Shown here piece by piece: positions 31,145 through 43,536 of a stretch of 64,000 nucleotides of DNA. The translations under genes were made by a program, and so were the position numbers. Within the stretch, counting starts at the first letter, position 1. Each line of letters opens with the position of its first letter. The notes below the pieces were generated by a model. It saw nothing but the letters and a program-made list of their open reading frames with translations. It did no database searches and was not told the DNA's origin. Source of the stretch: a virus. The stretch spans positions 32,001-96,000 of the IMG/VR virus record IMGVR_UViG_3300043823_000198. The stretch is one strand, 5' to 3'.

Positions 31145-31376
31145 TAGATACTTGAAAGTCAGAGGATATGAGGGTCTTGTTAGAGACACCTCCTCTGGTG
31201 CTATTATAAATACAAATACAGCTGAACTGCAGAATTATTTACGCCAAAGAGAGTTGGCGGAACAAAAAGATCTTCAAATTTCTAAACAATCTGAAGACAT
31301 AAATAATATGAAAGAAGAAATTCAGGAAATAAAATCGTTGATTTATCAACTATTGGACACTAAGGGTAACAAATGA
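31137..31376 (+). CDS. Small coiled-coil phage protein
   Basis: GTG start overlapping previous stop; LVRDTSSGAIINTN plus coiled coil; contains TATAAATA at 31205-12. Confidence 0.75.
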   Translation: MHNRYLKVRGYEGLVRDTSSGAIINTNTAELQNYLRQRELAEQKDLQISKQSEDINNMKEEIQEIKSLIYQLLDTKGNK

Positions 31377-32608
31377 CAACATATACAGTAGGTGCACCAA
31401 CTCTGGTTTTAAGAGCTTCCAAAGGAAGTCCACTATTAAACTCAGAAGTTGATGCTAACTTTACCAATTTAAGTAATGCGGTACAAACATCTCTATTGGC
31501 AAGCACTTATACTGCTGCAGATGTTCTTTCTAAATTAAACTCTGTCACTGCATATAACCAATCTTCTGGTTTAAATGCTGACACTTTAACTTGGAATGGT
31601 GGCAATAGAGCTGCAAGTAGCGCCAATACAGCAAATACAATTGTTGCAAGAGATGGTAATGGAGCATTTACTGCCACTACTATTAACGCAACTACATTCA
31701 ATGGAACATTCTCTGGAACTGCTGCAATTACTTCTGGTTCTATCGCTTTAAGTACTGCCTTGGCAATTACTTCTGGTGGTACTGGAGCTACTTCTGCTTC
31801 TGCCGCAAGAACTAACCTTGGATTGGCGATTGGTTCAAACGTAGAAGCATGGAGCGCTAACTTAGATGCGCTTTCTGGAGTTTCTTCTTCTGCAAACGTA
31901 CTTCCATATTTTACTGGTGTGGGAACTGCATCTGTTACATCGTTCCCATCATACGCTCAATCTCTTGTAGGGTCTAGTTCTGCATCAGCTGCTCAGTCTA
32001 CTCTTGGTTTAGTTATTGGTACCAACGTTCAGGCTTATTCATCAAATTTGGCGGCAACATCTAGTGTTTCTTCTGGTATTATCGCAATGCAAGGAACAGG
32101 ATCTGCTTCTGGTGTAACAATCACGGCTGGCTCTGGTATCTCTGTTTCTAACGGTAACGGTGTTGGTGGTAACCCAACTATTTCTGCAGCTGTTACATCT
32201 GTTCAGGGTATGACTGGCGCAGTTTCTGTTTCTGTTCCTGTTACTTCTGTTCAGGGTATGACTGGAAATTTGACAGTTACTAATATTTCTGGTAGTGCTG
32301 GATACGCATCTTCAGCTGGATACGCATCTTCAGCTGGATACGCATCTTCAGCTGGTGGTGGATGGCCAGGTGCGTTATCATCATTCCATAATAACTTGGG
32401 TAACTATGGTGGATGGGTTCCGCATGGAAATAAGGGAACTGGCAACAACCCTAGCAATGCATGGGGGCGTAACGCTGGAGCATATAATCATGGTCATATT
32501 CCTGGTTCTCACCACTCATATAACTGTCACAATCAAATGCATTTAGACACAGGTCAAGGATTGGATCACTATCACCATTTCATTAATTGCAGAAATTGTA
32601 ACTGCTAA
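31373..32608 (+). CDS. Tail fibre-like protein with His/Cys-rich C-terminal tip
   Basis: KGSPL..EVDANF head, GGTGA..AARTNLGL and VTSVQGMTG fibre repeats; ends HYHHFINCRNCNC. Confidence 0.8.
   Translation: MTTYTVGAPTLVLRASKGSPLLNSEVDANFTNLSNAVQTSLLASTYTAADVLSKLNSVTAYNQSSGLNADTLTWNGGNRAASSANTANTIVARDGNGAFTATTINATTFNGTFSGTAAITSGSIALSTALAITSGGTGATSASAARTNLGLAIGSNVEAWSANLDALSGVSSSANVLPYFTGVGTASVTSFPSYAQSLVGSSSASAAQSTLGLVIGTNVQAYSSNLAATSSVSSGIIAMQGTGSASGVTITAGSGISVSNGNGVGGNPTISAAVTSVQGMTGAVSVSVPVTSVQGMTGNLTVTNISGSAGYASSAGYASSAGYASSAGGGWPGALSSFHNNLGNYGGWVPHGNKGTGNNPSNAWGRNAGAYNHGHIPGSHHSYNCHNQMHLDTGQGLDHYHHFINCRNCNC
32297..32350 (+). repeat. Perfect 18-nt tandem repeat x3 (AGYASS)
   Basis: GCTGGATACGCATCTTCA three times. 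Confidence 0.97.
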
Positions 32609-32618
32609 GGAATAATAA

Positions 32619-33551
32619 ATGTCAATAAAATATGTAACCCAGAAAGTTGACCCATTAAGATTATCGTATCCAGGTAGATATGGAACACAGTCGTTTGTTT
32701 CTCAATCGTATGTCGATCAAACCACAGATCCAACATCAACATTTGAAGCTCAACTTAATACACCACAAGCGCAAAGAAAAACGACAACATCGAATTGGCA
32801 TACTACTCCAATTCAATTTGAGTATAAATTTGATACTGTTGATGCAAATAACATTCAAGTTACATTCACAAATGTAACTGAGAATAAAATATTTTTCACA
32901 TATATTATTAATTTTACTCAAACTCTTCTAAATACATTTGTTGCACAGACAGTTTATGGAGTAGCAACAGAGTATCATGCAGAAAATAATGGCAAAACAG
33001 AAGTTGTAAGTCCTGGAGATATTGTTAATTATTCTGATACTACATTTTCAACCAAAGATGAAGCGCCACATTTTGTTGGTAAATCTATTGTAAAATTCTT
33101 TTGCACAAAAAATAATCCAACAATCAATGATTTGATTTTTATGGTTTATGCTCCAGTGGCACCAAATGATCCTTCTGCGCCAAATACATATGGCGCACAA
33201 AATGTAGATCCAACATGGGCGCCACATACTATAACAGTCGATGGAACTGCAATTGATTCGACTTCTTTCGTAAAAGAAATTGCTTCTATTAAAGATTTAT
33301 TATATCCAATCACAACTTCTTACACTACTTCTGGAAATGTTATTACAGTTAATGTTACAACAAATCCAGCAATTACAGAAGTATATTTAAGTTCTACTGT
33401 TGGATATATTGCTAAGACTGTAGTTCCAATAACAAATGGAACTGGAACATTCAATGTTGTTACTACTGGCTTAAATTCTGGTGATGTTGTTAATGTTAAA
33501 ATTGGTTATAAATATTGGAGTAACGTAGTTACTTTTAATACAACAATCTAA
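32619..33551 (+). CDS. Hypothetical protein with beta-rich/Ig-like C-terminus
   Basis: AAGGA SD; 310 aa; C-terminal VYLSSTVGYIAKTVVPITNGTGTF..GLNSGDVVNVKIG. Confidence 0.75.
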   Translation: MSIKYVTQKVDPLRLSYPGRYGTQSFVSQSYVDQTTDPTSTFEAQLNTPQAQRKTTTSNWHTTPIQFEYKFDTVDANNIQVTFTNVTENKIFFTYIINFTQTLLNTFVAQTVYGVATEYHAENNGKTEVVSPGDIVNYSDTTFSTKDEAPHFVGKSIVKFFCTKNNPTINDLIFMVYAPVAPNDPSAPNTYGAQNVDPTWAPHTITVDGTAIDSTSFVKEIASIKDLLYPITTSYTTSGNVITVNVTTNPAITEVYLSSTVGYIAKTVVPITNGTGTFNVVTTGLNSGDVVNVKIGYKYWSNVVTFNTTI

Positions 33552-33571
33552 TTTAAACAACTTGGAATGAT

Positions 33572-34963
33572 ATGGCGAAATTTGTTATAACTGTAAAACA
33601 CCCTGAAAAAGATGAACTTAAAAAAGTAGTATACGACAGCTCCATCAGTACCTTAACATGGGAAGATGGAACTCCTGTTGTAGAAAATACTCTTACTCAA
33701 GTAGAAGTTCAAAACCCTGCTAAAATTGAAAATGGAAAGAAAGACCTAAAGACTGTAAAAATACAGCTAGGTCTTTCATGCAATTTTGAATGCGATTATT
33801 GTAATCAGAGATTCGTACCTCATGCAGATTCAACTAATCCAGAAGACGTTCAGCCGTTCGTTGATAATATGTCTTCATGGTTTCCAGGTGGGAGGGATGG
33901 TTTAGGCAATGGTACTAAAATTGAATTTTGGGGAGGAGAACCATTAGTTTATTGGAAAACTCTAAAACCATTGGCAGAAGCATTAAGAGAAAAATATCCA
34001 AATGCAATTTTTGGTATAGTAACAAATGGTAGTTTGTTAGATTCAGAAAAAAATGCATGGTTAGACAGACTTGGTTTTGGAGTCGCAGTTTCTCATGATG
34101 GTCCAGGTCAATTTGTTCGAGGACCAGACCCTCTACTAGACGAATTATCAAAATCTGGAATTATTGAATTATATAAAATTCTTGCGCCTAAAGATAGGTT
34201 TACATTTAATTCTATGATCAACTCTAAAAATATTAGTAGAGCTGATATTGAACAGTTTTTTGTAAAATTTGTATCAGAAAATATCGGAGAAGAATATCTT
34301 GAATATTTAATAATTGGAGAGGGCGGTTTCGTTGATGCTTATGACGAAGGTGGAATGGCTAATTCTTTATTAGACGAAGAAGAAGATATTCGATATCGAA
34401 ATATTGCATTAAATGATCTTCGTTCTGGAAATGTAAAACGATTTGAAGTTATACAAAGCAAATATCATGAGTTTGCTAATACAATTATGAATGGTATTCG
34501 AATAGAATCAGTTCCACAAAAATGTGGTATGGACAAATCTAATCAGATGGCAGTTGATCTAAATGGTAATGTTCTGACATGTCAGAACGTCAGTGCTGTT
34601 TCTAATAATCCAGCAGGAGTTTCACATAAAATTGGACATGTTTCTGATTTATCTTCTGTAGAATTAAAGACAGCCACTCATTGGAGCGATAGAAGCGAAT
34701 GCCCAAACTGCCCAGTAGTTCATATATGCAAAGGAGCATGTATGTTTCTCAGTGGTGATCTTTGGGAAGCGAGTTGTAACAATGCGTTTAGCGACAATAT
34801 TTTAATATTCACTCTTGCTATTGAAGATGCTACAGGTGGTTGGATTCCAGGATATATTGATGGTCCATTAAGGGAAGATAGAAAAGATATCTACTGGTGG
34901 ATCAACGGTAAGCCAGAAAAAACACGAAAAGCAAAGAAATTTATTCCTATAATGGCGGTTTAA
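33572..34963 (+). CDS. Radical SAM enzyme with SPASM domain
   Basis: CNFECDYC, WGGEP, TNG, SHDG; SPASM C-x18-C ... CPNCPVVHICKGAC ... C. Confidence 0.95.
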   Translation: MAKFVITVKHPEKDELKKVVYDSSISTLTWEDGTPVVENTLTQVEVQNPAKIENGKKDLKTVKIQLGLSCNFECDYCNQRFVPHADSTNPEDVQPFVDNMSSWFPGGRDGLGNGTKIEFWGGEPLVYWKTLKPLAEALREKYPNAIFGIVTNGSLLDSEKNAWLDRLGFGVAVSHDGPGQFVRGPDPLLDELSKSGIIELYKILAPKDRFTFNSMINSKNISRADIEQFFVKFVSENIGEEYLEYLIIGEGGFVDAYDEGGMANSLLDEEEDIRYRNIALNDLRSGNVKRFEVIQSKYHEFANTIMNGIRIESVPQKCGMDKSNQMAVDLNGNVLTCQNVSAVSNNPAGVSHKIGHVSDLSSVELKTATHWSDRSECPNCPVVHICKGACMFLSGDLWEASCNNAFSDNILIFTLAIEDATGGWIPGYIDGPLREDRKDIYWWINGKPEKTRKAKKFIPIMAV

Positions 34964-34964
34964 T

Positions 34965-35234
34965 ATGAGTTACATTGACGGATATTTGGTTGAGATAAAT
35001 CAGTTTCCAAGATTTGGAGAAAGGTTTACAATAAAAAGTTATTTCTATTACAACTCAAATACAAAAGAATATGGTTACAGGGATACAGTTATCCCAAAAG
35101 AACAAATTATAAATAATGATGATATGACGGAAGAATTAGTTGCAAACATTATAAATAATAATATACCTGCAATGAGAAGGGTCATTGACCCAATAAATTT
35201 AACAGAAAGTTGGATTTTTGAGCCAACAGCATAA
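34965..35234 (+). CDS. Hypothetical protein
   Basis: 89 aa, starts 1 nt after the rSAM stop. Confidence 0.65.
   Translation: MSYIDGYLVEINQFPRFGERFTIKSYFYYNSNTKEYGYRDTVIPKEQIINNDDMTEELVANIINNNIPAMRRVIDPINLTESWIFEPTA
35108..35157 (+). promoter_or_regulatory. Two perfect TATAAATA late promoter motifs upstream of dctP-like gene
   Basis: TATAAATA at 35108-15 and 35150-57. Confidence 0.55.
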
Positions 35235-35244
35235 GGAAAACAAA

Positions 35245-36192
35245 ATGAATTCTAAACATGTAAAATGGGTTATTGCTCACGAACCTATTGGTTTGTTTTT
35301 AAAAGTAGCCGAACATTTTGCTAAAGAAGTTAACGAAAAAACCAACGGTATGTTTAATATCGAAGTTCTTTCATTGTCTGATTATACAGCAAAATACAAT
35401 GATGGCAAAGCAATTACCAAGTATGATCTAATGGAATTGATCAATACTGGTAAGATCGAAATGAGTCACATCTATACCACTTGGCTTGGCGATTATAACA
35501 AAGATCTACATGCTTTAGATCTACCATTCCTATTCCGCGACCATGCTCATGCTGACGCTGTTTTAGAAGGTGAGGTTGGTGCTGAGTTATTAGCTGGCGT
35601 TTCTAAGAATAGCAATATCCATGCTATGTCTTTCACTTACTCTGGTGGTTATCGTGTTGTTCCAGCGAACTTCCGTGCTGACACTGTTGAGTCATGGAAA
35701 GGTCAAGCTGTTCGTACTTCTCGTTCTCCAGTTGCTGTTGAAACATTCAAGCTACTTGGCGCTGAACCAAAAGAGAACATCGCTCTAGAAGAAATGAACG
35801 AATTTGCCGATCGTGGCGAAATCGCTGCTGGTGAATCAACATACGTTCGTATTTTCCCACTCGATCAATATAAGTCGTTCAAGGTTGTTAATGACACTGC
35901 TCACAGCTTGTTCTTAACTTCTATTATTGTTAACAAAGATTTCATGGCTCAATTCGATAAGCAGACTCAAGAGATTATGGCTCAGGCTGCATTTAATGCT
36001 GCTCGTGCTGAACGTCGCGAATCTGTTGCTGATATTCCTAACATTCTTGCTGAATGTAAAGAGAAGGGTGTTGAAGTTGTTCGTATGAATGAAACCGAAG
36101 AGAAGAAATTTAAAGAGATTACTTCTAAGGTTTATGATGTCTTCGCTGATTATTTTACACCTGGACTTGTGCATAAGATCCAATTACATTAA
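35245..36192 (+). CDS. dctP: TRAP transporter substrate-binding protein (DctP family), no signal peptide
   Basis: FAKEVNEKTNG..IEV, LDLPFLFRD..HA..VLEGEVG..LL, GYR, VR, LGA.P; start reset to ATG 35245 after AAGGA. Confidence 0.9.
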   Translation: MNSKHVKWVIAHEPIGLFLKVAEHFAKEVNEKTNGMFNIEVLSLSDYTAKYNDGKAITKYDLMELINTGKIEMSHIYTTWLGDYNKDLHALDLPFLFRDHAHADAVLEGEVGAELLAGVSKNSNIHAMSFTYSGGYRVVPANFRADTVESWKGQAVRTSRSPVAVETFKLLGAEPKENIALEEMNEFADRGEIAAGESTYVRIFPLDQYKSFKVVNDTAHSLFLTSIIVNKDFMAQFDKQTQEIMAQAAFNAARAERRESVADIPNILAECKEKGVEVVRMNETEEKKFKEITSKVYDVFADYFTPGLVHKIQLH

Positions 36193-36209
36193 TCTGAATG
36201 ATGATAAAT

Positions 36210-36233
36210 AAAGGGAGCTTCGGCTCCCTTTTT
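36210..36233 (+). terminator. Intrinsic terminator with C(UUCG)G loop
   Basis: AAAGGGAGC-TTCG-GCTCCCTTTTT. Confidence 0.9.
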
Positions 36234-36248
36234 ATTTTGAGGAAAATT

Positions 36249-37295
36249 ATGGAACAAGATTTTAAAGAATCAATTTTATACTATGATAAGAAGAATGTGT
36301 CTAATTTTGCGCAAAACGATTATACAAAAATTTATAGATTTTTGAATCCAATCACGGATTATAAAGTTTTTCACACATATCTAAGACTTGGTTTAATGGA
36401 ACACAATGCTGTTTATGATAGGAGTGGAGAAATCCCACACTTTCTTAATATGGCAGAAGATTTACATCCATTACCAAAACACATAGAAGGTTATAACAAA
36501 TCTTTTTATGAAGTCGCAGAAAATAGAGCAAAAGAACTACTAGCGTTAAATCAACCGATTAATGTTATGTGGTCTGGTGGTCTTGATAGCACATTCGCAT
36601 TGTTCATGTTACGTAAATTTGCAAACGACAAAGATCAAGTTCGAGTATATGGAACATATAACTCTATCATTGAATCTGGCGACATGTTCGACCGTGTCAT
36701 TAAAGATAATTTCAAATACGAGATATCAACTGCAACACGCAACGACTTAAATTTAAATTCTGAAGGAATTTACGTTAGTGGTATGTGTGGTAATCAATTG
36801 TTTGGTCCAACAGATGATATGTTTGGTAATAATATGTTATTTCATCATACACTTGGAACACCTGAAACAATTTATGAATCATATGAAAAAAATATTGATC
36901 CAGAGTTACTTGAATTTTTATATCCAGCAATTAAGGTTAGCCCAAGAAAAATTGAAACAGTTGCAGATTTAAGATGGTATTGTATATTTAATTTAGACTG
37001 GTATACAGCAATATACGAACATAAAATTTTATTACCAAAAGAAAAAGCTGAGAAAATTTATGGATTTTTTGATTCTATTGAGTTTCAGGAATGGGCTGCT
37101 AACACAAAAGAACCTTTTACAAAAGTGCAAGGAGATCCAAATACTCATCGCTGGCAAATGAGAGAGATTCTTAGTGATATTTTTGGTGAAGTTGAATATG
37201 CAAAAAATAAAGAAAAGAAAATCTCTAATTTTTCAATAACTGAACCAGGCTGGATTGCGCTTTTAGAAGATTATCGAAATGTTTTTATCGATTAA
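36249..37295 (+). CDS. PP-loop ATP pyrophosphatase, asparagine-synthetase C-domain-like
   Basis: MWSGGLDS PP-loop; VSGMCGNQLFG resembles the AsnB SGEGADELFG motif; no glutaminase domain; start reset to ATG 36249 after GAGGA. Confidence 0.75.
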   Translation: MEQDFKESILYYDKKNVSNFAQNDYTKIYRFLNPITDYKVFHTYLRLGLMEHNAVYDRSGEIPHFLNMAEDLHPLPKHIEGYNKSFYEVAENRAKELLALNQPINVMWSGGLDSTFALFMLRKFANDKDQVRVYGTYNSIIESGDMFDRVIKDNFKYEISTATRNDLNLNSEGIYVSGMCGNQLFGPTDDMFGNNMLFHHTLGTPETIYESYEKNIDPELLEFLYPAIKVSPRKIETVADLRWYCIFNLDWYTAIYEHKILLPKEKAEKIYGFFDSIEFQEWAANTKEPFTKVQGDPNTHRWQMREILSDIFGEVEYAKNKEKKISNFSITEPGWIALLEDYRNVFID

Positions 37296-37315: not shown

Positions 37316-37323
37316 TATAAATA
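37316..37323 (+). promoter_or_regulatory. T4 late promoter
   Basis: Perfect intergenic TATAAATA. Confidence 0.8.
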
Positions 37324-37353: not shown

Positions 37354-37686
37354 ATGGCGACAATTAGCAACCTTTTTGTTGATGCGGGGAGCGACTACAG
37401 CAACATAATTACTGTTGCTGGAAGTAATGGCCAAGCATTGAATTTGACTGGTTATACTGTGGCTTCTCAGATGAGAAAGTCATATCTTTCATCGACTTCA
37501 TATCCATTTACAGCTTCAATTTACAATGCTACAACTGGTCAGGTAAGTATACAGTTATCTTCTGCTTCTTCAGCTGCTATGTGGCCAGGAAGATACCTTT
37601 ACGATGTAGAAATAACATCACCGTCTGGAACACGAACAAGAGTCGTTGAAGGCATTGTAACAATTACCCCTGAGATAACAAAATAA
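37354..37686 (+). CDS. Small virion/fibre adaptor protein
   Basis: NLFVDAGSDY, LNLTGY.VASQMRKSY, GRYLYDVEI..RVVEGIVTITP. Confidence 0.75.
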   Translation: MATISNLFVDAGSDYSNIITVAGSNGQALNLTGYTVASQMRKSYLSSTSYPFTASIYNATTGQVSIQLSSASSAAMWPGRYLYDVEITSPSGTRTRVVEGIVTITPEITK

Positions 37687-37937
37687 TGACAGACGTAGTA
37701 GCAACAGTAACACCAGTAAGTACAGTTACAGTTTCAGTATCTTCTGCAGATCTTATTACAGCACAATCAAATTTAGCATCACCTTCTGTTGTTGAGTCAA
37801 TATCAGATATCGCCAACGTAGACACAACAACAAATGGTGTTGAGCAGGGATCGGTTTTGGTGTACCAAACAGCAACAAACAAATGGACATCTTCCACTAT
37901 TCTGCAAGATCAGGATATGGAAGGTGGCGAATTTTAA
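37686..37937 (+). CDS. Small fibre-associated protein
   Basis: ISDIANVD..GSVLVY..KW repeat unit; ends MEGGEF. Confidence 0.7.
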   Translation: MTDVVATVTPVSTVTVSVSSADLITAQSNLASPSVVESISDIANVDTTTNGVEQGSVLVYQTATNKWTSSTILQDQDMEGGEF

Positions 37938-37951
37938 TCGGAGAATAAAAG

Positions 37952-40888
37952 ATGGCATCAACAATTAGAATTAAAAGATCATCGGTTAATGGTAACCCAA
38001 GTACCCTTGCCGCAGGTGAATTAGCGTATTCATCATATACTGGCTCAGGTGGTAATAGACTTTACGTTGGTACTGGAACAGAAACTGCAGGTAACGCAGC
38101 GAACCACGTTGTTATTGGCGGTCAATACTACACTGGTCTTATCGATGCATCCACTGCTGGCACATTAACAACAAACCAATCTTCAATTCCTGTTCTTTCT
38201 GCAACTGGTACGATTAATCAGTGGTTGGTTGGTAACTTAGGTCTTACTGGTAATACACTAAGCTCTACTAACACCAATGGTAATATTAATATTGCTCCAA
38301 ATGGATCTGGTGCAGTTCAAATTTCTGGTGCTTATACATTACCTACTACTGCTGGCACTAACGGATATGCTCTTATTACCAATGGTAGCTCTGCTGCTTC
38401 ATGGCAAGCAATTTCAACTATCCTTAACTTGGCTGCTGGTGGTGCCACTACAAGCTCTGTAAACCTTCTTAACCAGACACTAACAATTGCTGGTGGTAAC
38501 GGTATTACCACTTCTGTTTCTGGTCAAACTGTTACAATTTCTTCTATTGGTGCGGGTGGTTACACTTCTACTGCAACTGGTGGAACTACAACTACTTTAA
38601 CATCAAGTTCTTCAGCTAATCAATTCTTTGTTGGTACAACTACTCAGACTGTTAAGTTACCTGATTGTACAACTCTTACAATTGGTCAAGAGTATATCAT
38701 CACTAACAATAGTACTGGTGCTCTAACAATTCAAACATCTGCAGGTGGTGCTCTTGCCACAATTAACGCTGGCACTCAAGTAACATTCACTGTTGCTTCT
38801 ACTTCAACTCAGACTTGGGTCCAAGAAATTACTGGTTTCAATAGTTCAACTGGTACTGGTGCTGCTGTATTTGCTTCTAACGCATCATTAACTGGCACTT
38901 CAATTACTAATGCCAGCTTAACAACTCCAACTATTGGTTCTGCTGGCGCATCATTCTCTGGTTCTACATCTGGAACTACAACTCTTGTTGCTTCAGCCAC
39001 TGCTTCTGGTACTCTAACATTACCAGCTGCAACTGATCAGTTGATTGGTCGCGCAACAACTGACACATTAACTAACAAGACATTTGATACTGCTGGAACT
39101 GGTAACGTATTAAAGATTAACGGAAACCAAGTATCTTCTTACACTGGTTCTGGCGCCAATGTTATGTTGTCATCCCAGCCATCTGTTACTGGTGGTATTA
39201 ACTTTAGTGGATCTGGTTCTGGTCAGACTACTGTTTCTGCATCAGCTACTGCTTCTGGTACTCTAACATTACCAGCTGCAACTGATACTTTAGTTGGTCG
39301 TGCCACTACTGACACGCTAACCAATAAAACGATTAATCTTACTAGTAACACTCTAGTTGCCACATCAGCTCAACTTAGATCAGCAGTTAGCGATGAAACA
39401 GGTACTGGTTCATTAGTATTCGCCAACACTCCAACTCTTGTAACTCCAGTTCTTGGTGCAGCAACTGCCACTAGCGTTGTCGCTTCTGCTGGTTTAGTTT
39501 CTACTGGCGCATTTGGTGGTACGTTCTCTGGTGGTATCGTTCTTGATTATTCTGGAAGTACTGGTCGTATTTCTGTTGGTTCAGGTAGCGGTATTGCGTT
39601 ATACAACAATACTGATACTACTCGACAGGCTATATTTGCTGTTGGTTCCACTGGCGCAGTTACGCTTCTAGGTGGTTCAATCACTGGTACTACAGCAGTT
39701 ACAATTAACGCTGGTGGCACAAACTCAAATATCAATTTTGTTCCAACAGGAACTGGAACTGTTGACGTTGGTAGCGCAAGAATTACTTCAGTTGCAACAC
39801 CAGTAAATGCAACTGATGCTGCTAATAAAGCGTATGTTGATGGTCTCAAATCTGGTCTAGATGTTAAGTACCCAGTTCGTTTAGCGACTACTGGTTCTAA
39901 TCTTACAGTAACTGCCTCTGGTTCTGGTGCAGGTAAAACACTTACTAACTCTGGCACTCAAGCAGCCTTTACTCTTGACTCTGTTCCAGCTAATGTTGGC
40001 GACCGTATCCTTGTTAAAGATCAGTCAACTGCCAAAGATAATGGTATCTATACTGTTACTAACATTGGTTCTTCTTCTACAAACTGGGTTCTTACTCGCG
40101 CAACAGATGCTGATGGTTCATCTACCACTGCCACTGTTACTCCAGGTATGTTCTGTTTCGTTACAGAAGGTACTCTGAACGCCAACTCTGGTTATGTTCT
40201 AGCAGAATTCTCTGCTGACGTTGCCACTATCACTGTTGACACTAACCCACAAAACTGGATGCAGTTCTCTGGTGCTGGTGAAATTAACGCTGGTTCTGGT
40301 TTATCTAAGTCTGGTAACACTCTAAGTGCAGTTGTTGATAACTCAACTCTTGCTATCGTAAGCAATCAGTTACAAATTAACTCATCTTACGTTGGTCAAT
40401 CTTCTATCACTACTCTTGGTACTATTACTACTGGCACTTGGCATGGTGGTGTAATTGGCGCAACTTATGGTGGTACTGGTGTTAATAATGGTTCTAATAC
40501 TATTACTCTTGGTGGTAATATTTCTACTGCTGGTTCATTAACTACTACTGGCGCATATTCTCTAGGTCTAACAGTTACTGGCGCAACTAGCGTAACATTA
40601 CCAACTTCTGGTACTCTTGCTACTCTAGCCAACAGCGAAACATTAACTAACAAGACACTTGGTTCTGGTTCTACTTGGAATGGTAACACTGTTGCTGTTG
40701 GTTATGGTGGTACTGGCACTACTTCTTTCACTGCAAATGGTATCGTTTTTGGTAACGGTACTGGTGCTCTTCAGGTTACTGCCGCTGCATCTGGTGGAAC
40801 TGGTAGTGATTACAGCTATCAAATTTTGACAGTGAATGCTTCTGGTGTTCCGCAGTGGTCAAGCTCAATTGACGGTGGCACGTACTAA
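37952..40888 (+). CDS. Tail fibre protein
   Basis: N-terminal IRIKRS..GELAYS; TLTNKT repeats; DAANKAYVD; GDRILVKDQ..NGIY; ends IDGGTY. Confidence 0.85.
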   Translation: MASTIRIKRSSVNGNPSTLAAGELAYSSYTGSGGNRLYVGTGTETAGNAANHVVIGGQYYTGLIDASTAGTLTTNQSSIPVLSATGTINQWLVGNLGLTGNTLSSTNTNGNINIAPNGSGAVQISGAYTLPTTAGTNGYALITNGSSAASWQAISTILNLAAGGATTSSVNLLNQTLTIAGGNGITTSVSGQTVTISSIGAGGYTSTATGGTTTTLTSSSSANQFFVGTTTQTVKLPDCTTLTIGQEYIITNNSTGALTIQTSAGGALATINAGTQVTFTVASTSTQTWVQEITGFNSSTGTGAAVFASNASLTGTSITNASLTTPTIGSAGASFSGSTSGTTTLVASATASGTLTLPAATDQLIGRATTDTLTNKTFDTAGTGNVLKINGNQVSSYTGSGANVMLSSQPSVTGGINFSGSGSGQTTVSASATASGTLTLPAATDTLVGRATTDTLTNKTINLTSNTLVATSAQLRSAVSDETGTGSLVFANTPTLVTPVLGAATATSVVASAGLVSTGAFGGTFSGGIVLDYSGSTGRISVGSGSGIALYNNTDTTRQAIFAVGSTGAVTLLGGSITGTTAVTINAGGTNSNINFVPTGTGTVDVGSARITSVATPVNATDAANKAYVDGLKSGLDVKYPVRLATTGSNLTVTASGSGAGKTLTNSGTQAAFTLDSVPANVGDRILVKDQSTAKDNGIYTVTNIGSSSTNWVLTRATDADGSSTTATVTPGMFCFVTEGTLNANSGYVLAEFSADVATITVDTNPQNWMQFSGAGEINAGSGLSKSGNTLSAVVDNSTLAIVSNQLQINSSYVGQSSITTLGTITTGTWHGGVIGATYGGTGVNNGSNTITLGGNISTAGSLTTTGAYSLGLTVTGATSVTLPTSGTLATLANSETLTNKTLGSGSTWNGNTVAVGYGGTGTTSFTANGIVFGNGTGALQVTAAASGGTGSDYSYQILTVNASGVPQWSSSIDGGTY
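38999..39286 (+). repeat. Perfect 39-nt direct repeat (38999-39037 and 39248-39286)
   Basis: ACTGCTTCTGGTACTCTAACATTACCAGCTGCAACTGAT twice, 249 nt (83 codons) apart. Confidence 0.9.
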
Positions 40889-40934
40889 TAAATAAAACAG
40901 GTGGGTGTAAGCCCCACCCTCAGTATATACTGAG
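40888..40934 (+). promoter_or_regulatory. Late promoter-like motif, hairpin and 16-bp perfect palindrome
   Basis: ATAAATA 40888-94; GGTGGG/CCCACC stem 40900-18; CTCAGTATATACTGAG 40919-34. Confidence 0.65.
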
Positions 40935-40962
40935 TAATGATTTTCTAAATAGAAGGTAGATA

Positions 40963-43536
40963 ATGGCAACGCCACTATTATTAAAACGATCATCCGTTCA
41001 AGGAAAAGTCCCAGCAACAACTTCGCTTCAGTTGGGTGAACTTGCACTTAACACGTATGATGGTAATATTTTCTTTAAGAAATCTCCAAATGGAACAGAC
41101 TCTTTAATTACTGTTTCAACAAACAATAATCTACTTTCTTACATTGTTGTAACATCAAATACAACAGCAGTCGCCAGACAATCCTATATTGCGAATACAT
41201 CTGCAGGTAATTTTACAATTACATTGCCAGCTACACCCAACTCTGGTGATTGGGTAGTTGTTGCTGATGGTGCAAATTTTAGCACAACTCCAGTAACAAT
41301 CGGAGCGAATGGTCAATCTATTGACGGTATCTCTCAAAACTTAAATCTAGACATCGCTGGTGTTTCAGTTACATTGACTTTCAACGGAACAACTTGGTTA
41401 GTATATACTCAGGTTGGCGCCAACGGTGGAGTTGCTAGTGGAGGTGGTTCTGGATCAACATCTTGGACAAGCATAACAGGTAAACCTACATTCGCAACTG
41501 TTGCCACTAGCGGTAGTTATACTGATTTAATAAATCAACCAACTCTGGCACCTTCAGCTACTACTGATACAACAAATGCTTCTAATATTACAAGCGGAAC
41601 ATTGCCAAACGCTCGTCTGAGTTCAGTTCCTAATTCTGCTCTTGCTAATAGTTCTGTTACTATTGGCACAACTACTATCGCATTAGGCGCTTCCAGCACT
41701 ACTCTTACTGGTTTAACATCAGTAACTTCTACATCTTTCGTTGGCGCTTTAACTGGTAATGCGTCAACAGTAACTAATGGTGTTTATACTACTGATACTG
41801 GCACAGTAACCAACACTATGCTTGCTGGTTCAATCGCTAATGCTAAATTAGCAAACAGCACAATTTCTGGTGTTTCTCTTGGTTCAAACTTAAATACATT
41901 GACGTTTGGAACTGGGTTAACAGGAACATCGTATAATGGATCAAGTGCAGTTACTATTGCTCTTGACACAACTGCAGTTAAAAACCTATTCAGCGTTACA
42001 TCTAACTCTGCTGGCACAGAGGCTCTATCATATAGTGGTGGTGTGTTTACATTCACCCCATACGCATTACCAACAGCAACAACATCAACACTTGGTGGTG
42101 TAACTGTTGATGGATCTACTATTACTATCTCTGGAAGCACAATTAGTGCAACATCTTTCCAACCTAATGGTGTATATAATATTACATCATCGGGTGGAAC
42201 AACAACGCTTACTGCTTCCACTGCAACTAACGTAACAGTTACTGGTTCTGCAACGCAAACTATTAAGATGCCAGATGCAACTACGCTAAAGGCTGGTTGG
42301 ATATTCCGTATTAACAATAACACATCATCTGCATCAAGTTTAAATCTACAAGATAGCACTGGGGCTCAAATTGGAACAGTACCTCAGGGTGGTGATTCTC
42401 AGGTAATTCTGTTAACCAATTCCACTGCCGCTGGAACATGGGACGTGCATGGTTGGATTCCGTCCAACATATTAATGGGCTCAAGTATACTACAACTTGG
42501 ATCAAGTAGTTATAGTATCGGTCCATATAATTCATCATTAACCATTGGCTCGGCAAGTTCAGTATCAACAACATATAACTTTGGTACTGGGGCTACTACT
42601 AGCGGAAACACTAAAGCGATTAACATCGGCACAGCTGGTGTTAGTGGCTCAACTACTACAATTACATTGGGCAGCAACGTAAGTGGCGCTACTTCTTCTA
42701 CGGTTGTTAACGGATCGCTTTCCGTAACAACAAGCGGATCAACTGGTTCAATAACAGTTACTGATACTGGAACAAACGGTGGCAATATTGCATTAGTTGG
42801 CAACGGTTCAACTACTCCCAACAAATATCTTCGTTCTTACAATGGTAGCTTTGGAATTGTTAACAGTGGATATACAGCAAGCATAATTAACATTTCTGAT
42901 GCTGGTATGATTTCAACAGGTGGTGCATCCACCGCAAGTAATAATATACCAACTGGTAATGCGATTTCGTTGAATAGTAATGGTTACATCAGTGATGACG
43001 GTAACCTTCACATTACAAGTAGTAGTGGTTCTATTTGGATTAATCCAGTGGATAGTTCCGCAGTTCGCATTGGAACACAATACAATAGCGGATCTGGCGC
43101 AGGTTTAGTTGTTCAGGGTGGTATCACATCTAATACAACAGATCCATCGCAGGGAACTTACTTTACCAAAGTTCAAACCAATTGGAACGTTAATCAACCA
43201 TCACTGGCTATGGATAACTTAAACGTGAGGTTGAATAATAGTAGTGGGAATAACTTATTGATACAGGCCAGTGCAGTCAGTGGATCATTTACTGCTTATA
43301 TAACTACTTTTGAAAGCTGTGCAGGAAATCCACTTACTAGCCAAACCAACTCTGGTGGTATTACATTTACAGCAGGAACTTGGACCAGCATCAATGCCGT
43401 TCACACATTAAGTTCTGGTGGTGATGTTATCTTTTTCTTTCTTTCTGATACTACATCTGGTAAAATATATCGTGTTACTTGTTTACACACCAATGGCGCA
43501 ACCAATGGATCTATCTTTATTGAGCGTATGGTGTAA
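40963..43536 (+). CDS. Tail fibre protein
   Basis: LLLKRSS..GELALNTYDG; TITLPATP..GD.V; WTSITGKPTFATVATSGSYTDL; Thr/Ser/Gly rich. Confidence 0.85.
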   Translation: MATPLLLKRSSVQGKVPATTSLQLGELALNTYDGNIFFKKSPNGTDSLITVSTNNNLLSYIVVTSNTTAVARQSYIANTSAGNFTITLPATPNSGDWVVVADGANFSTTPVTIGANGQSIDGISQNLNLDIAGVSVTLTFNGTTWLVYTQVGANGGVASGGGSGSTSWTSITGKPTFATVATSGSYTDLINQPTLAPSATTDTTNASNITSGTLPNARLSSVPNSALANSSVTIGTTTIALGASSTTLTGLTSVTSTSFVGALTGNASTVTNGVYTTDTGTVTNTMLAGSIANAKLANSTISGVSLGSNLNTLTFGTGLTGTSYNGSSAVTIALDTTAVKNLFSVTSNSAGTEALSYSGGVFTFTPYALPTATTSTLGGVTVDGSTITISGSTISATSFQPNGVYNITSSGGTTTLTASTATNVTVTGSATQTIKMPDATTLKAGWIFRINNNTSSASSLNLQDSTGAQIGTVPQGGDSQVILLTNSTAAGTWDVHGWIPSNILMGSSILQLGSSSYSIGPYNSSLTIGSASSVSTTYNFGTGATTSGNTKAINIGTAGVSGSTTTITLGSNVSGATSSTVVNGSLSVTTSGSTGSITVTDTGTNGGNIALVGNGSTTPNKYLRSYNGSFGIVNSGYTASIINISDAGMISTGGASTASNNIPTGNAISLNSNGYISDDGNLHITSSSGSIWINPVDSSAVRIGTQYNSGSGAGLVVQGGITSNTTDPSQGTYFTKVQTNWNVNQPSLAMDNLNVRLNNSSGNNLLIQASAVSGSFTAYITTFESCAGNPLTSQTNSGGITFTAGTWTSINAVHTLSSGGDVIFFFLSDTTSGKIYRVTCLHTNGATNGSIFIERMV

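Follow-up and report, generated by a model that had tools for sequence, protein, structure and literature searches.

An Asn-Cys ladder at phage tail-fibre tips and its co-encoded radical SAM/SPASM enzyme: a candidate system for maturing a virion protein

Introduction

The isopeptide chainmail of the HK97 capsid, the His-Fe tip of T4 gp37 and the S74 chaperones of tail fibres are autocatalytic or metal-coordinated, and we know of no virion reinforcement system with a dedicated radical enzyme. In the QhpD/QhpC system, a radical S-adenosylmethionine (SAM)/SPASM enzyme cross-links Cys to Asp/Glu carbons. Here we describe a locus in a 64,000-nucleotide stretch of DNA from an uncultured freshwater phage (the window; positions 32,001 to 96,000 of IMG/VR record IMGVR_UViG_3300043823_000198, a complete virus record of 165,633 bp), in which a radical SAM/SPASM enzyme (rSAM) is encoded inside the tail module, behind a tail fibre that ends in a ladder of Asn-Cys units and a 310-aa protein with an Ig-like domain. 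Three further genes follow, for an 89-aa protein, a DctP-type binding protein and an AsnB-like PP-loop enzyme.

The described reaction that bears most directly on such a ladder is that of the streptococcal enzyme NxxcB, which makes a Cys-Asn beta-thioether at an Asn-x-x-Cys motif, with the thiol activated on an auxiliary cluster, and which tolerates Ala, Gln and Asp as acceptors (PMC9389541). Full-text searches of the literature brought up nothing that connects radical SAM enzymes with the tail fibres of phages, and a megablast of the region found no near-identical DNA among GenBank phages. A first-pass annotation, made from the letters of the window, had read all six genes as one island for the chemistry of peptides that ribosomes synthesise and that are modified post-translationally (RiPPs), with the fibre tip as substrate. 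In our analysis the substrate proposal is strongly supported by comparative genomics. The six genes do not hold together as a unit, the last three being optional, and what stands as one system is the core of fibre, 310-aa protein and rSAM.

Results

Association of the enzyme with the ladder

For the viral survey, 50 distinct rSAM loci were examined, and the 40 with at least 3 kb of upstream sequence entered the ladder count. A same-strand open reading frame (ORF) with a ladder tail is found within 6 kb in 38 of the 40, as compared with 8 of 1420 ORFs in the opposite-strand control. Of the two viral loci without such an ORF, one is a Hint case of the kind described below and the other is L079, for which no explanation was found. 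The rSAM family is also present in 228 bacterial-genome stretches, mostly of Burkholderiales, with carriers in Limnohabitans isolates, Polynucleobacter, Polaromonas, Rhodoferax, Burkholderia paludis and Paraburkholderia; the ladder is there in 53 of 54 bacterial rSAM loci, mostly Burkholderiales prophages.

The converse test starts from the ladder. ORFs of at least 60 aa ending in (NC)3 plus TAA, with 3.5 kb of downstream sequence, were collected, and the rSAM was sought on the same strand. The DNA pattern has 112 matches in viral contigs, 88 of them ending an ORF of at least 60 aa. The rSAM is downstream of 42 of 47 NCNCNC-ending ORFs versus none of 13 chance matches in short frames, and a hidden Markov model (HMM) of the 310-aa family matches all of the rSAM-positive loci but one. 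Homologues of the rSAM without Cys-tipped fibres, the case that the first-pass annotation had singled out as damaging to its proposal, thus hardly occur.

Gene order points the same way. In 39 viral loci fetched by rSAM similarity, the order fibre, 310-aa homologue, rSAM is seen in every locus with enough flank. Counted as a ladder-tailed fibre or fibre-like protein, an Ig-like partner and a SPASM enzyme that share a strand over a few kb, the trio occupies 31373-34963 of the window and recurs in about 90 other phage or prophage loci, its synteny kept across myovirus-like, siphovirus and prophage backgrounds. We infer from this comparison of genomes that the fibre is very probably the substrate of the co-encoded rSAM.

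The fibre and its tip

The fibre matches PHROG tail fibre families (E = 4e-7) and has homologues in the same position of related loci at 42-76% identity. It has no His or Cys before residue 339. All 11 His are at residues 339-402, and all 4 Cys (385, 406, 409 and 411) are each preceded by Asn; both kinds of residue fall within the last 73. The terminal NC-NC is invariant across an alignment of 25 fibre tips, and in the 39 viral loci the extreme C-terminus of all 28 distinct fibres is (NC)2-4 or a close variation on it. Across loci the ladder has 2-11 X-Cys units with a median of 4. Asn stands ahead of the ladder Cys in 82% of the viral cases and in 59% of the bacterial ones, with Ala and Asp next in frequency, and a free C-terminal Cys ends the ladder in 44 of 48 distinct tails of the window's clade. 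No other ORF of at least 100 aa in the genome has an (N/D/S/Q-Cys)x2 repeat.

Among relatives, the tip region preceding the ladder is hypervariable, both in its length and in its sequence, and only a subset have it rich in His. The general signature is the terminal (Asn-Cys)n ladder, not the His stretch, and the His/Cys tip pointed out in the first-pass annotation generalises in its Cys part, the His being present in part of the relatives.

The radical SAM/SPASM enzyme

The window's rSAM matches phrog_1802 (E = 1e-65) and exceeds the cut-off of the SPASM model TIGR04085 (32.3 bits against 27), while Pfam PF04055 scores slightly below its own (28.3 bits against 29.5). The CX3CX2C motif Cys (C70, C74, C77) are invariant in 14 divergent homologues. 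Exactly 7 SPASM Cys are invariant as well (C318, C337, C377, C380, C386, C390 and C402) with no eighth, and these fit the 7-Cys SPASM motif C-x-G-x4-C ... C-x2-C-x5-C-x3-C ... C. From the structures of CteB and the anaerobic sulfatase-maturating enzyme (anSME), 7 SPASM Cys would presumably leave one of the auxiliary clusters with an open site.

The best NCBIfam similarities are to thioether and cyclophane maturases, including PapB and QhpD, at scores that do not reach the family cut-offs: 58.2 bits against 340 for the PapB-family model NF047865 (E = 8e-16), 44 against 453 for QhpD TIGR03906 (E = 9e-12), and 33.3 against 349 for the anaerobic sulfatase maturase TIGR03942. Among GenBank phages, tblastn finds 46% identity to gp045 of Ralstonia phage RSP15 and 43% to the enzymes of Achromobacter phages JWF and 2-1; the GenBank record of JWF names the homologue anaerobic sulfatase-maturating enzyme. 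The Ralstonia jumbo phages RP12 and RP31 have an rSAM that is 24% identical, beside virion genes and with no ladder, and were set aside as too distant.

The 310-aa partner

The first-pass annotation listed the 310-aa protein as an unknown, which underrated it, as it is the third constant member of the core. Its AlphaFold2 model has a predicted local distance difference test (pLDDT) score of 88. Residues 229-310 match intimin/invasin Ig domains (Z = 9.5, root mean square deviation 2.4 over 79 residues), a Pfam Big_1 match is found on a relative, and the homologue in RSP15, gp047, is 39% identical. The Ig domain is conserved and the N-terminal domain is fast-evolving, with a mean column identity of 28%; for residues 1-228, Foldseek and VIA-align give no convincing structural match. 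When the 310-aa protein and an 84-aa piece of the fibre tip were predicted as a complex, without controls, the score was 0.00, which speaks neither for nor against binding. By these features the protein would resemble a surface-exposed tip protein or adhesin more than a RiPP recognition element (RRE).

Proteins that carry the ladder

The ladder is found in several protein architectures. It ends fibres of 290-440 aa in the window and in RSP15, where the rSAM is preceded by a "side tail fiber" (gp048) ending NTNCQCGN and by the 310-aa homologue. In loci L083-L094, L096 and L107, it is on separate proteins of 84-134 aa, which are placed after a fibre that has its own S74 chaperone. At L038:2799-8371, three tandem proteins of 86-87 aa share a common N-terminus and each end NCNCNC, and after them are encoded two Ig-like partner paralogues, three 2-oxoglutarate-Fe(II) oxygenases (PF13759/PF13640) and the rSAM, which is a richer tailoring set, with Asn hydroxylation as a possible part of it.

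Three proteins have the ladder inside the chain. In phage 2-1, a 480-aa fibre-like protein upstream of the rSAM (L002:5733-7175) holds NCNCDCNCSC and then a Hint (intein-like, autoprocessing) domain; the others are in a Burkholderia paludis prophage (L177:4733-6259) and at L154:4229-5356. In all three, the Hint module starts one or two residues past the ladder end, so that Hint-type autoprocessing would put the ladder at a new C-terminus, and the last ladder Cys may serve as the Hint nucleophile, giving a C-terminal thioester on the ladder. This placement argues that the ladder must be terminal, and that it would stay on the structural protein rather than being released.

Two side observations belong with these proteins. 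RSP15 also encodes, between the partner and the rSAM, the 288-aa gp046 (L001:7078-7944), which has no Pfam match and whose H-x-D...H-like motifs would suit a cupin or oxygenase. NCNCNC ends with no rSAM of this family downstream occur at L246:2672-3226, L251:11273-11881 (minus strand), L240, L276 and L296; the proteins form two Cys-rich phage families of about 185 and 203 aa, and one of them precedes a 2230-aa protein with 62 Cys.

The accessory genes

The 89-aa protein, the DctP and the PP-loop enzyme are an optional, separable unit. All three are absent from L004, L007, L009, L019, L022-24, L028 and L029, about a quarter of the close relatives, and the fibre tails are alike with or without them. 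The unit is also absent from 80 bacterial loci, save one weak PP-loop match (25% identity, L182).

The 89-aa family is conserved in 22 aligned members, with no assignment for the window's protein from Pfam, PDB profiles or the ESM Atlas, and in many phage contexts a gene of this family precedes each PP-loop family member. The PP-loop enzyme has the motif SGGLDS, with SGG-DST invariant in the family, and its AlphaFold2 model has a pLDDT of 86. Foldseek ranks asparagine synthetase, carbapenam synthetase and beta-lactam synthetase domains at the top (E = 2e-4, TMq 0.34-0.42), and the nearest ESM Atlas structures (template modelling score 0.59-0.65) carry Pfam Asn_synthase (PF00733). The likeness to PF00733 is at the fold level only, with no Pfam match by sequence at E = 0.01. 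There is no N-terminal nucleophile (Ntn) glutaminase: about 90 residues precede the PP-loop, with no GATase match. By tblastn there are no relatives in GenBank phages, and the family extends to more than 479 viral stretches, with virus-only Atlas clusters and mostly non-structural neighbourhoods. At some places three or four PP-loop paralogues stand in tandem, with an 89-aa-family gene at the head of each set; such arrays were seen in non-structural regions at L115:397-5397 and L120:5637-9080.

The DctP belongs to the solute-binding proteins of tripartite ATP-independent periplasmic (TRAP) transporters by Pfam PF03480 (E = 1e-40, 140 bits against a cut-off of 23.4), NF037995 (109 bits against 50) and PDB TRAP binding proteins (E = 2e-16). 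Its start is about 8 residues ahead of the first strand, with no room for a signal peptide, and a search with positive controls found no match to DctQ or DctM in the complete phage genome. Arg codons are 9 CGT, 2 CGC and no AGR, and the GC content at third codon positions is 0.30, versus 0.14-0.24 in neighbouring genes. Lineages with an rSAM at 34-38% and a PP-loop enzyme at 43-49% identity to the window's have a DctP at 73-87%, and in those with an rSAM at 36-38% the DctP is at 64-87%, so that among phages it is much better conserved than the genes around it. Recent acquisition from a host was considered and rejected, identity to Limnohabitans binding proteins being at most 27%, and identity to host-type TRAP binding proteins is about 25%. 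The protein is probably an autonomous, strongly expressed and abundant cytoplasmic binder of a carboxylate or other ligand, and may act as a "sponge".

The full accessory trio, with the PP-loop enzyme 61-63% identical, is also found beside IscU, IscA-like, NrdA/NrdB and glutaredoxin genes with no rSAM within 6 kb, nor is there an rSAM on the whole contigs, which are at most 11% complete. At L049:4246-7738, L057 and L063, the module is joined by a DUF2061-like small membrane protein, directly upstream of the IscU/IscA-like genes and downstream of NrdA/NrdB/glutaredoxin; these fragments are probably from other, very large phages. The 89-aa/PP-loop pair is further found beside AhpC/AhpD-like genes and secreted binding proteins. 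In the window's own genome no IscU was found.

Layout of the locus

The window has a low GC content of about 36%, and its plus strand carries almost all genes. As described in the first-pass annotation, six plus-strand genes are tightly packed at 31373-37295 (Table 1), with gaps in order of 10, 20, 1, 10 and 56 nt and then 58 nt after the last gene; a hairpin with a T run occupies the 56-nt gap and TATAAATA the 58-nt gap. The earlier calls of a radical SAM/SPASM enzyme, a leaderless DctP and an AsnB-like enzyme hold, given TIGR04085, PF03480 without signal-peptide room, and SGGLDS with the fold. Virion genes flank the block on both sides: upstream, those for a 2195-aa and a 79-aa virion protein (phrog_473), and downstream, fibre and fibre-assembly genes. 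The related loci have S74 chaperone domains on neighbouring fibres.

Two gene starts need comment. For the DctP, the tabulated start is most likely because it has an AAGGA ribosome-binding site and gives a length matching the homologues. The PP-loop enzyme most likely starts at 36249, not at 36198, because the 17-residue extension is unconserved and overlaps the terminator hairpin.

Table 1. Features of the cassette and its surroundings (window coordinates)
Feature	Position	Strand	Basis
Tail fibre, 411 aa	31373..32608	+	PHROG tail fibre families, homologues in same position
His-rich distal tip, fibre residues 339-402 (11 His, 1 Asn-Cys)	32387..32578	+	sequence
C-terminal Asn-Cys ladder NCRNCNC, last 7 fibre residues	32585..32605	+	sequence, alignment
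310-aa partner: N-terminal domain 1-228, C-terminal Ig-like domain 229-310 (DNA 33303-33548)	32619..33551	+	AlphaFold2 model, HMM
Radical SAM/SPASM enzyme, 463 aa	33572..34963	+	phrog_1802, TIGR04085
89-aa protein	34965..35234	+	conserved family, partner of PP-loop enzyme family
Leaderless DctP-type TRAP solute-binding protein, 315 aa (most likely start, ATG 35245)	35245..36192	+	Pfam PF03480
Glutaminase-less AsnB-like PP-loop enzyme, 348 aa from corrected start (most likely ATG 36249)	36249..37295	+	motif, fold
TATAAATA, 161 nt upstream of fibre start, inside 79-aa virion protein gene	31205..31212	+	exact match
TATAAATA, 58 nt upstream of rSAM start	33507..33514	+	exact match
Two TATAAATA copies (35108, 35150), 130 and 88 nt upstream of DctP	35108..35157	+	exact match
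TATAAATA, 31 nt upstream of next tail gene (110 aa, fibre-assembly-like)	37316..37323	+	exact match
9-bp GC-rich hairpin then T run, terminator-like on both strands, between DctP and PP-loop gene	36210..36231	.	sequence

The plus strand of the genome has 12 copies of TATAAATA, of which 5 fall within these 6.1 kb where about 0.4 would be expected. Of the sites given in the first-pass annotation, those at 31205, 35108 and 35150 are exact and the one at 36203 has no exact match. The motif is the T4 late-promoter consensus. We infer a promoter function for it, and since it is that consensus, late co-expression of the cassette with the virion genes is plausible.

The genes downstream at 37354-43536 encode proteins of 110 aa (L-shaped-fibre-assembly-like), 83 aa, 978 aa and 857 aa, and nearly all related loci keep this order, whether they have the accessory module or lack it. 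The cassette therefore marks an insertion point inside a stable fibre block.

Discussion

Proposed reaction and its alternatives

The explanation that we prefer, and hold to be probable as a whole, is a core in which a ladder fibre is matured by thioether formation, with a separable accessory module beside it. Late in infection, the co-encoded enzyme would act on the (Asn-Cys)n ladder. If it works as NxxcB, PapB and QhpD do, a ladder Cys thiolate would be bound on an auxiliary Fe-S cluster, and hydrogen would be taken from a carbon of the neighbouring Asn (or Ala/Asp), giving Cys-S-C thioether bridges within one chain or among the three fibre chains. This would leave the extreme C-terminus as a small, rigid knot free of thiols, or would tie the chains together by cross-links. 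Thioether cross-linking is proposed because NCNC is an Asn-x-x-Cys motif as in NxxcB and because the enzyme has 7 SPASM Cys; as a claim about the chemistry, argued by analogy, we regard it as evenly balanced. The 310-aa protein would most likely sit on the tip as a partner, in the manner of an adhesin or cap, or else be an adaptor for the substrate, and the 89-aa/AsnB-like pair would probably adenylate a carboxylate and form an amide. The fuller picture is more tentative, with chances just short of even: a stack of Cys-Asn thioethers would give a knotted or trimer-locking tip that is a docking site for the variable Ig-like protein, and an AsnB-like carboxylate-activating step may follow. The accessory genes might otherwise perhaps be an auxiliary module tied to Fe-S or redox supply.

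Several points weigh against this explanation. The enzyme falls far short of the cut-offs of all curated maturase families, and the reaction therefore cannot be read from family membership. In the converse test, 5 of the 47 NCNCNC-tailed proteins, which belong to other protein families, have no rSAM downstream, so the ladder can exist without the enzyme. The late timing is read from a promoter-like motif. The Cys-X-Cys run and the His could simply bind metal. Lastly, the PP-loop gene adjoins the rSAM through at least 5 gene orders and over a range of 34-83% in rSAM identity to the window's, and because it stays beside the rSAM across such rearrangement and divergence, core and accessory module may yet act together.

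That last point bears on an alternative in which all six genes are one pathway. Here the AsnB-like enzyme, with its substrate presented by the 89-aa protein, would adenylate the ladder carboxylate, so that the C-terminal Cys carboxylate or an Asp is amidated, cyclised or ligated before or after cross-linking, and the leaderless DctP would hold the carboxylate or supply a small-molecule ligand. The persistent adjacency of the PP-loop gene suits this, as does its fold, which is that of the carboxylate-adenylating AsnB/beta-lactam synthetase class without the glutaminase. The free C-terminal Cys of the clade's 44 tails would be the end acted upon, and in other lineages that free end is replaced by Hint domains, which activate the same C-terminal carbonyl. 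We nevertheless think it rather unlikely, since about a quarter of the close relatives lack the module, as do the bacterial loci but for the weak L182 match, with tails alike; since it stands at 61-63% identity beside IscU/IscA/NrdAB with no rSAM within 6 kb; since the wider PP-loop family is found mostly in non-structural neighbourhoods; and since the DctP is set apart by promoter-like motifs, a terminator and a codon usage of its own.

Unlikely, too, is that the rSAM acts on the ladder with some other chemistry, such as formylglycine formation (anSME-like), alpha-thioethers (sactionine), epimerisation, or C-C or C-O links, in which case the proposed thioether to the Asn beta-carbon would not hold. 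The enzyme is in no curated family, with weak matches to anSME, DynA and YhhB models, and the label on the JWF homologue would fit the first of these. That label is set against the anSME score, some 33 bits where 349 are required, and against the 7 SPASM Cys, and the Asn preference before Cys has direct precedent only in NxxcB chemistry.

A third alternative is that ladder and His together are an unmodified metal- or Fe-S-binding tip, the rSAM having another target. The T4 gp37 tip has iron coordinated by His, and metallothioneins have Cys-X-Cys motifs; the Cys-X-Cys pattern with 11 His in the tip could be likened to both, and the accessory module is beside Fe-S assembly genes in other phages. 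As this leaves the SPASM enzyme beside the ladder in more than 90 loci, in both directions of testing, without explanation, and as the His stretch is unconserved, we consider it improbable. That a tolerant site in the tail module has merely taken in unrelated auxiliary metabolic genes is barely credible: the DctP and the PP-loop pair do behave so in other phages, which makes it conceivable for the accessory module only, and for the core trio it is contradicted by the conserved synteny.

Significance

Tail-fibre tips set which bacteria a phage can infect and are a target of engineering for phage therapy and diagnostics. If thioether maturation of the ladder is true, it would be the first case of a virion structural protein modified by a radical enzyme, a RiPP-like reaction with an entire fibre as the "leader", and RiPP-type chemistry would extend from secreted peptides to virus assembly. 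A fibre that needs an Fe-S radical enzyme would fail in heterologous expression or swapping without that enzyme, and infectivity may depend on the host's supply of Fe-S and SAM. It would also be a natural route to small thioether knots, resistant to protease and redox conditions, fused to proteins. Cultured carriers, namely Ralstonia phage RSP15, Achromobacter phages JWF and 2-1, and Limnohabitans prophages, allow direct tests.

Comparison with known systems

Among virion proteins, the HK97 chainmail, the T4 gp37 tip and the S74 chaperones are alike to the proposed ladder system in being post-translational reinforcement or maturation. For the accessory genes, the lasso peptide proteins B1 (an RRE) and C and the beta-lactam and carbapenam synthetases offer a likeness in the glutaminase-less AsnB-type fold and the partner protein of about 90 aa; the phage cassette differs from the lasso system in having no protease or lasso precursor, and its 89-aa protein showed no PqqD/RRE similarity in the searches made.

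The closer comparisons are with radical SAM enzymes. In PapB/PapA (freyrasin) and other ranthipeptide or sactipeptide maturases (CteB/SCIFF), several thioethers join Cys to acidic or amide residues of a repetitive core and the enzyme has a 7-Cys SPASM domain, which is like what is proposed for the phage ladder and its enzyme, whereas the phage cassette has no RRE domain, leader peptidase or exporter, and its candidate substrate is a structural protein. NxxcB/NxxcA, a radical SAM RiPP system of streptococci, is alike in the radical SAM/SPASM-type enzyme and the Asn-x-x-Cys substrate motif, and the acceptor tolerance of NxxcB parallels the natural variation of the phage ladders; however, NxxcA is a short leader-core peptide with one motif and a small released product, and the phages have 2-11 X-Cys units at the end of a virion fibre or fibre-like protein. 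QhpD acts within a subunit of a folded protein, not on a released peptide, and in this it can be likened to an enzyme with a fibre substrate, although its substrate family and biology are unlike those of the phage system.

In the strict sense a RiPP has a short leader precursor and a released product, while here the ladder is on a 411-aa fibre or on proteins of 84-134 aa, with no protease or exporter. By that definition the phage system is no RiPP pathway; its proposed working resembles ranthipeptide or NxxC maturation, and also the action of QhpD on a protein subunit.

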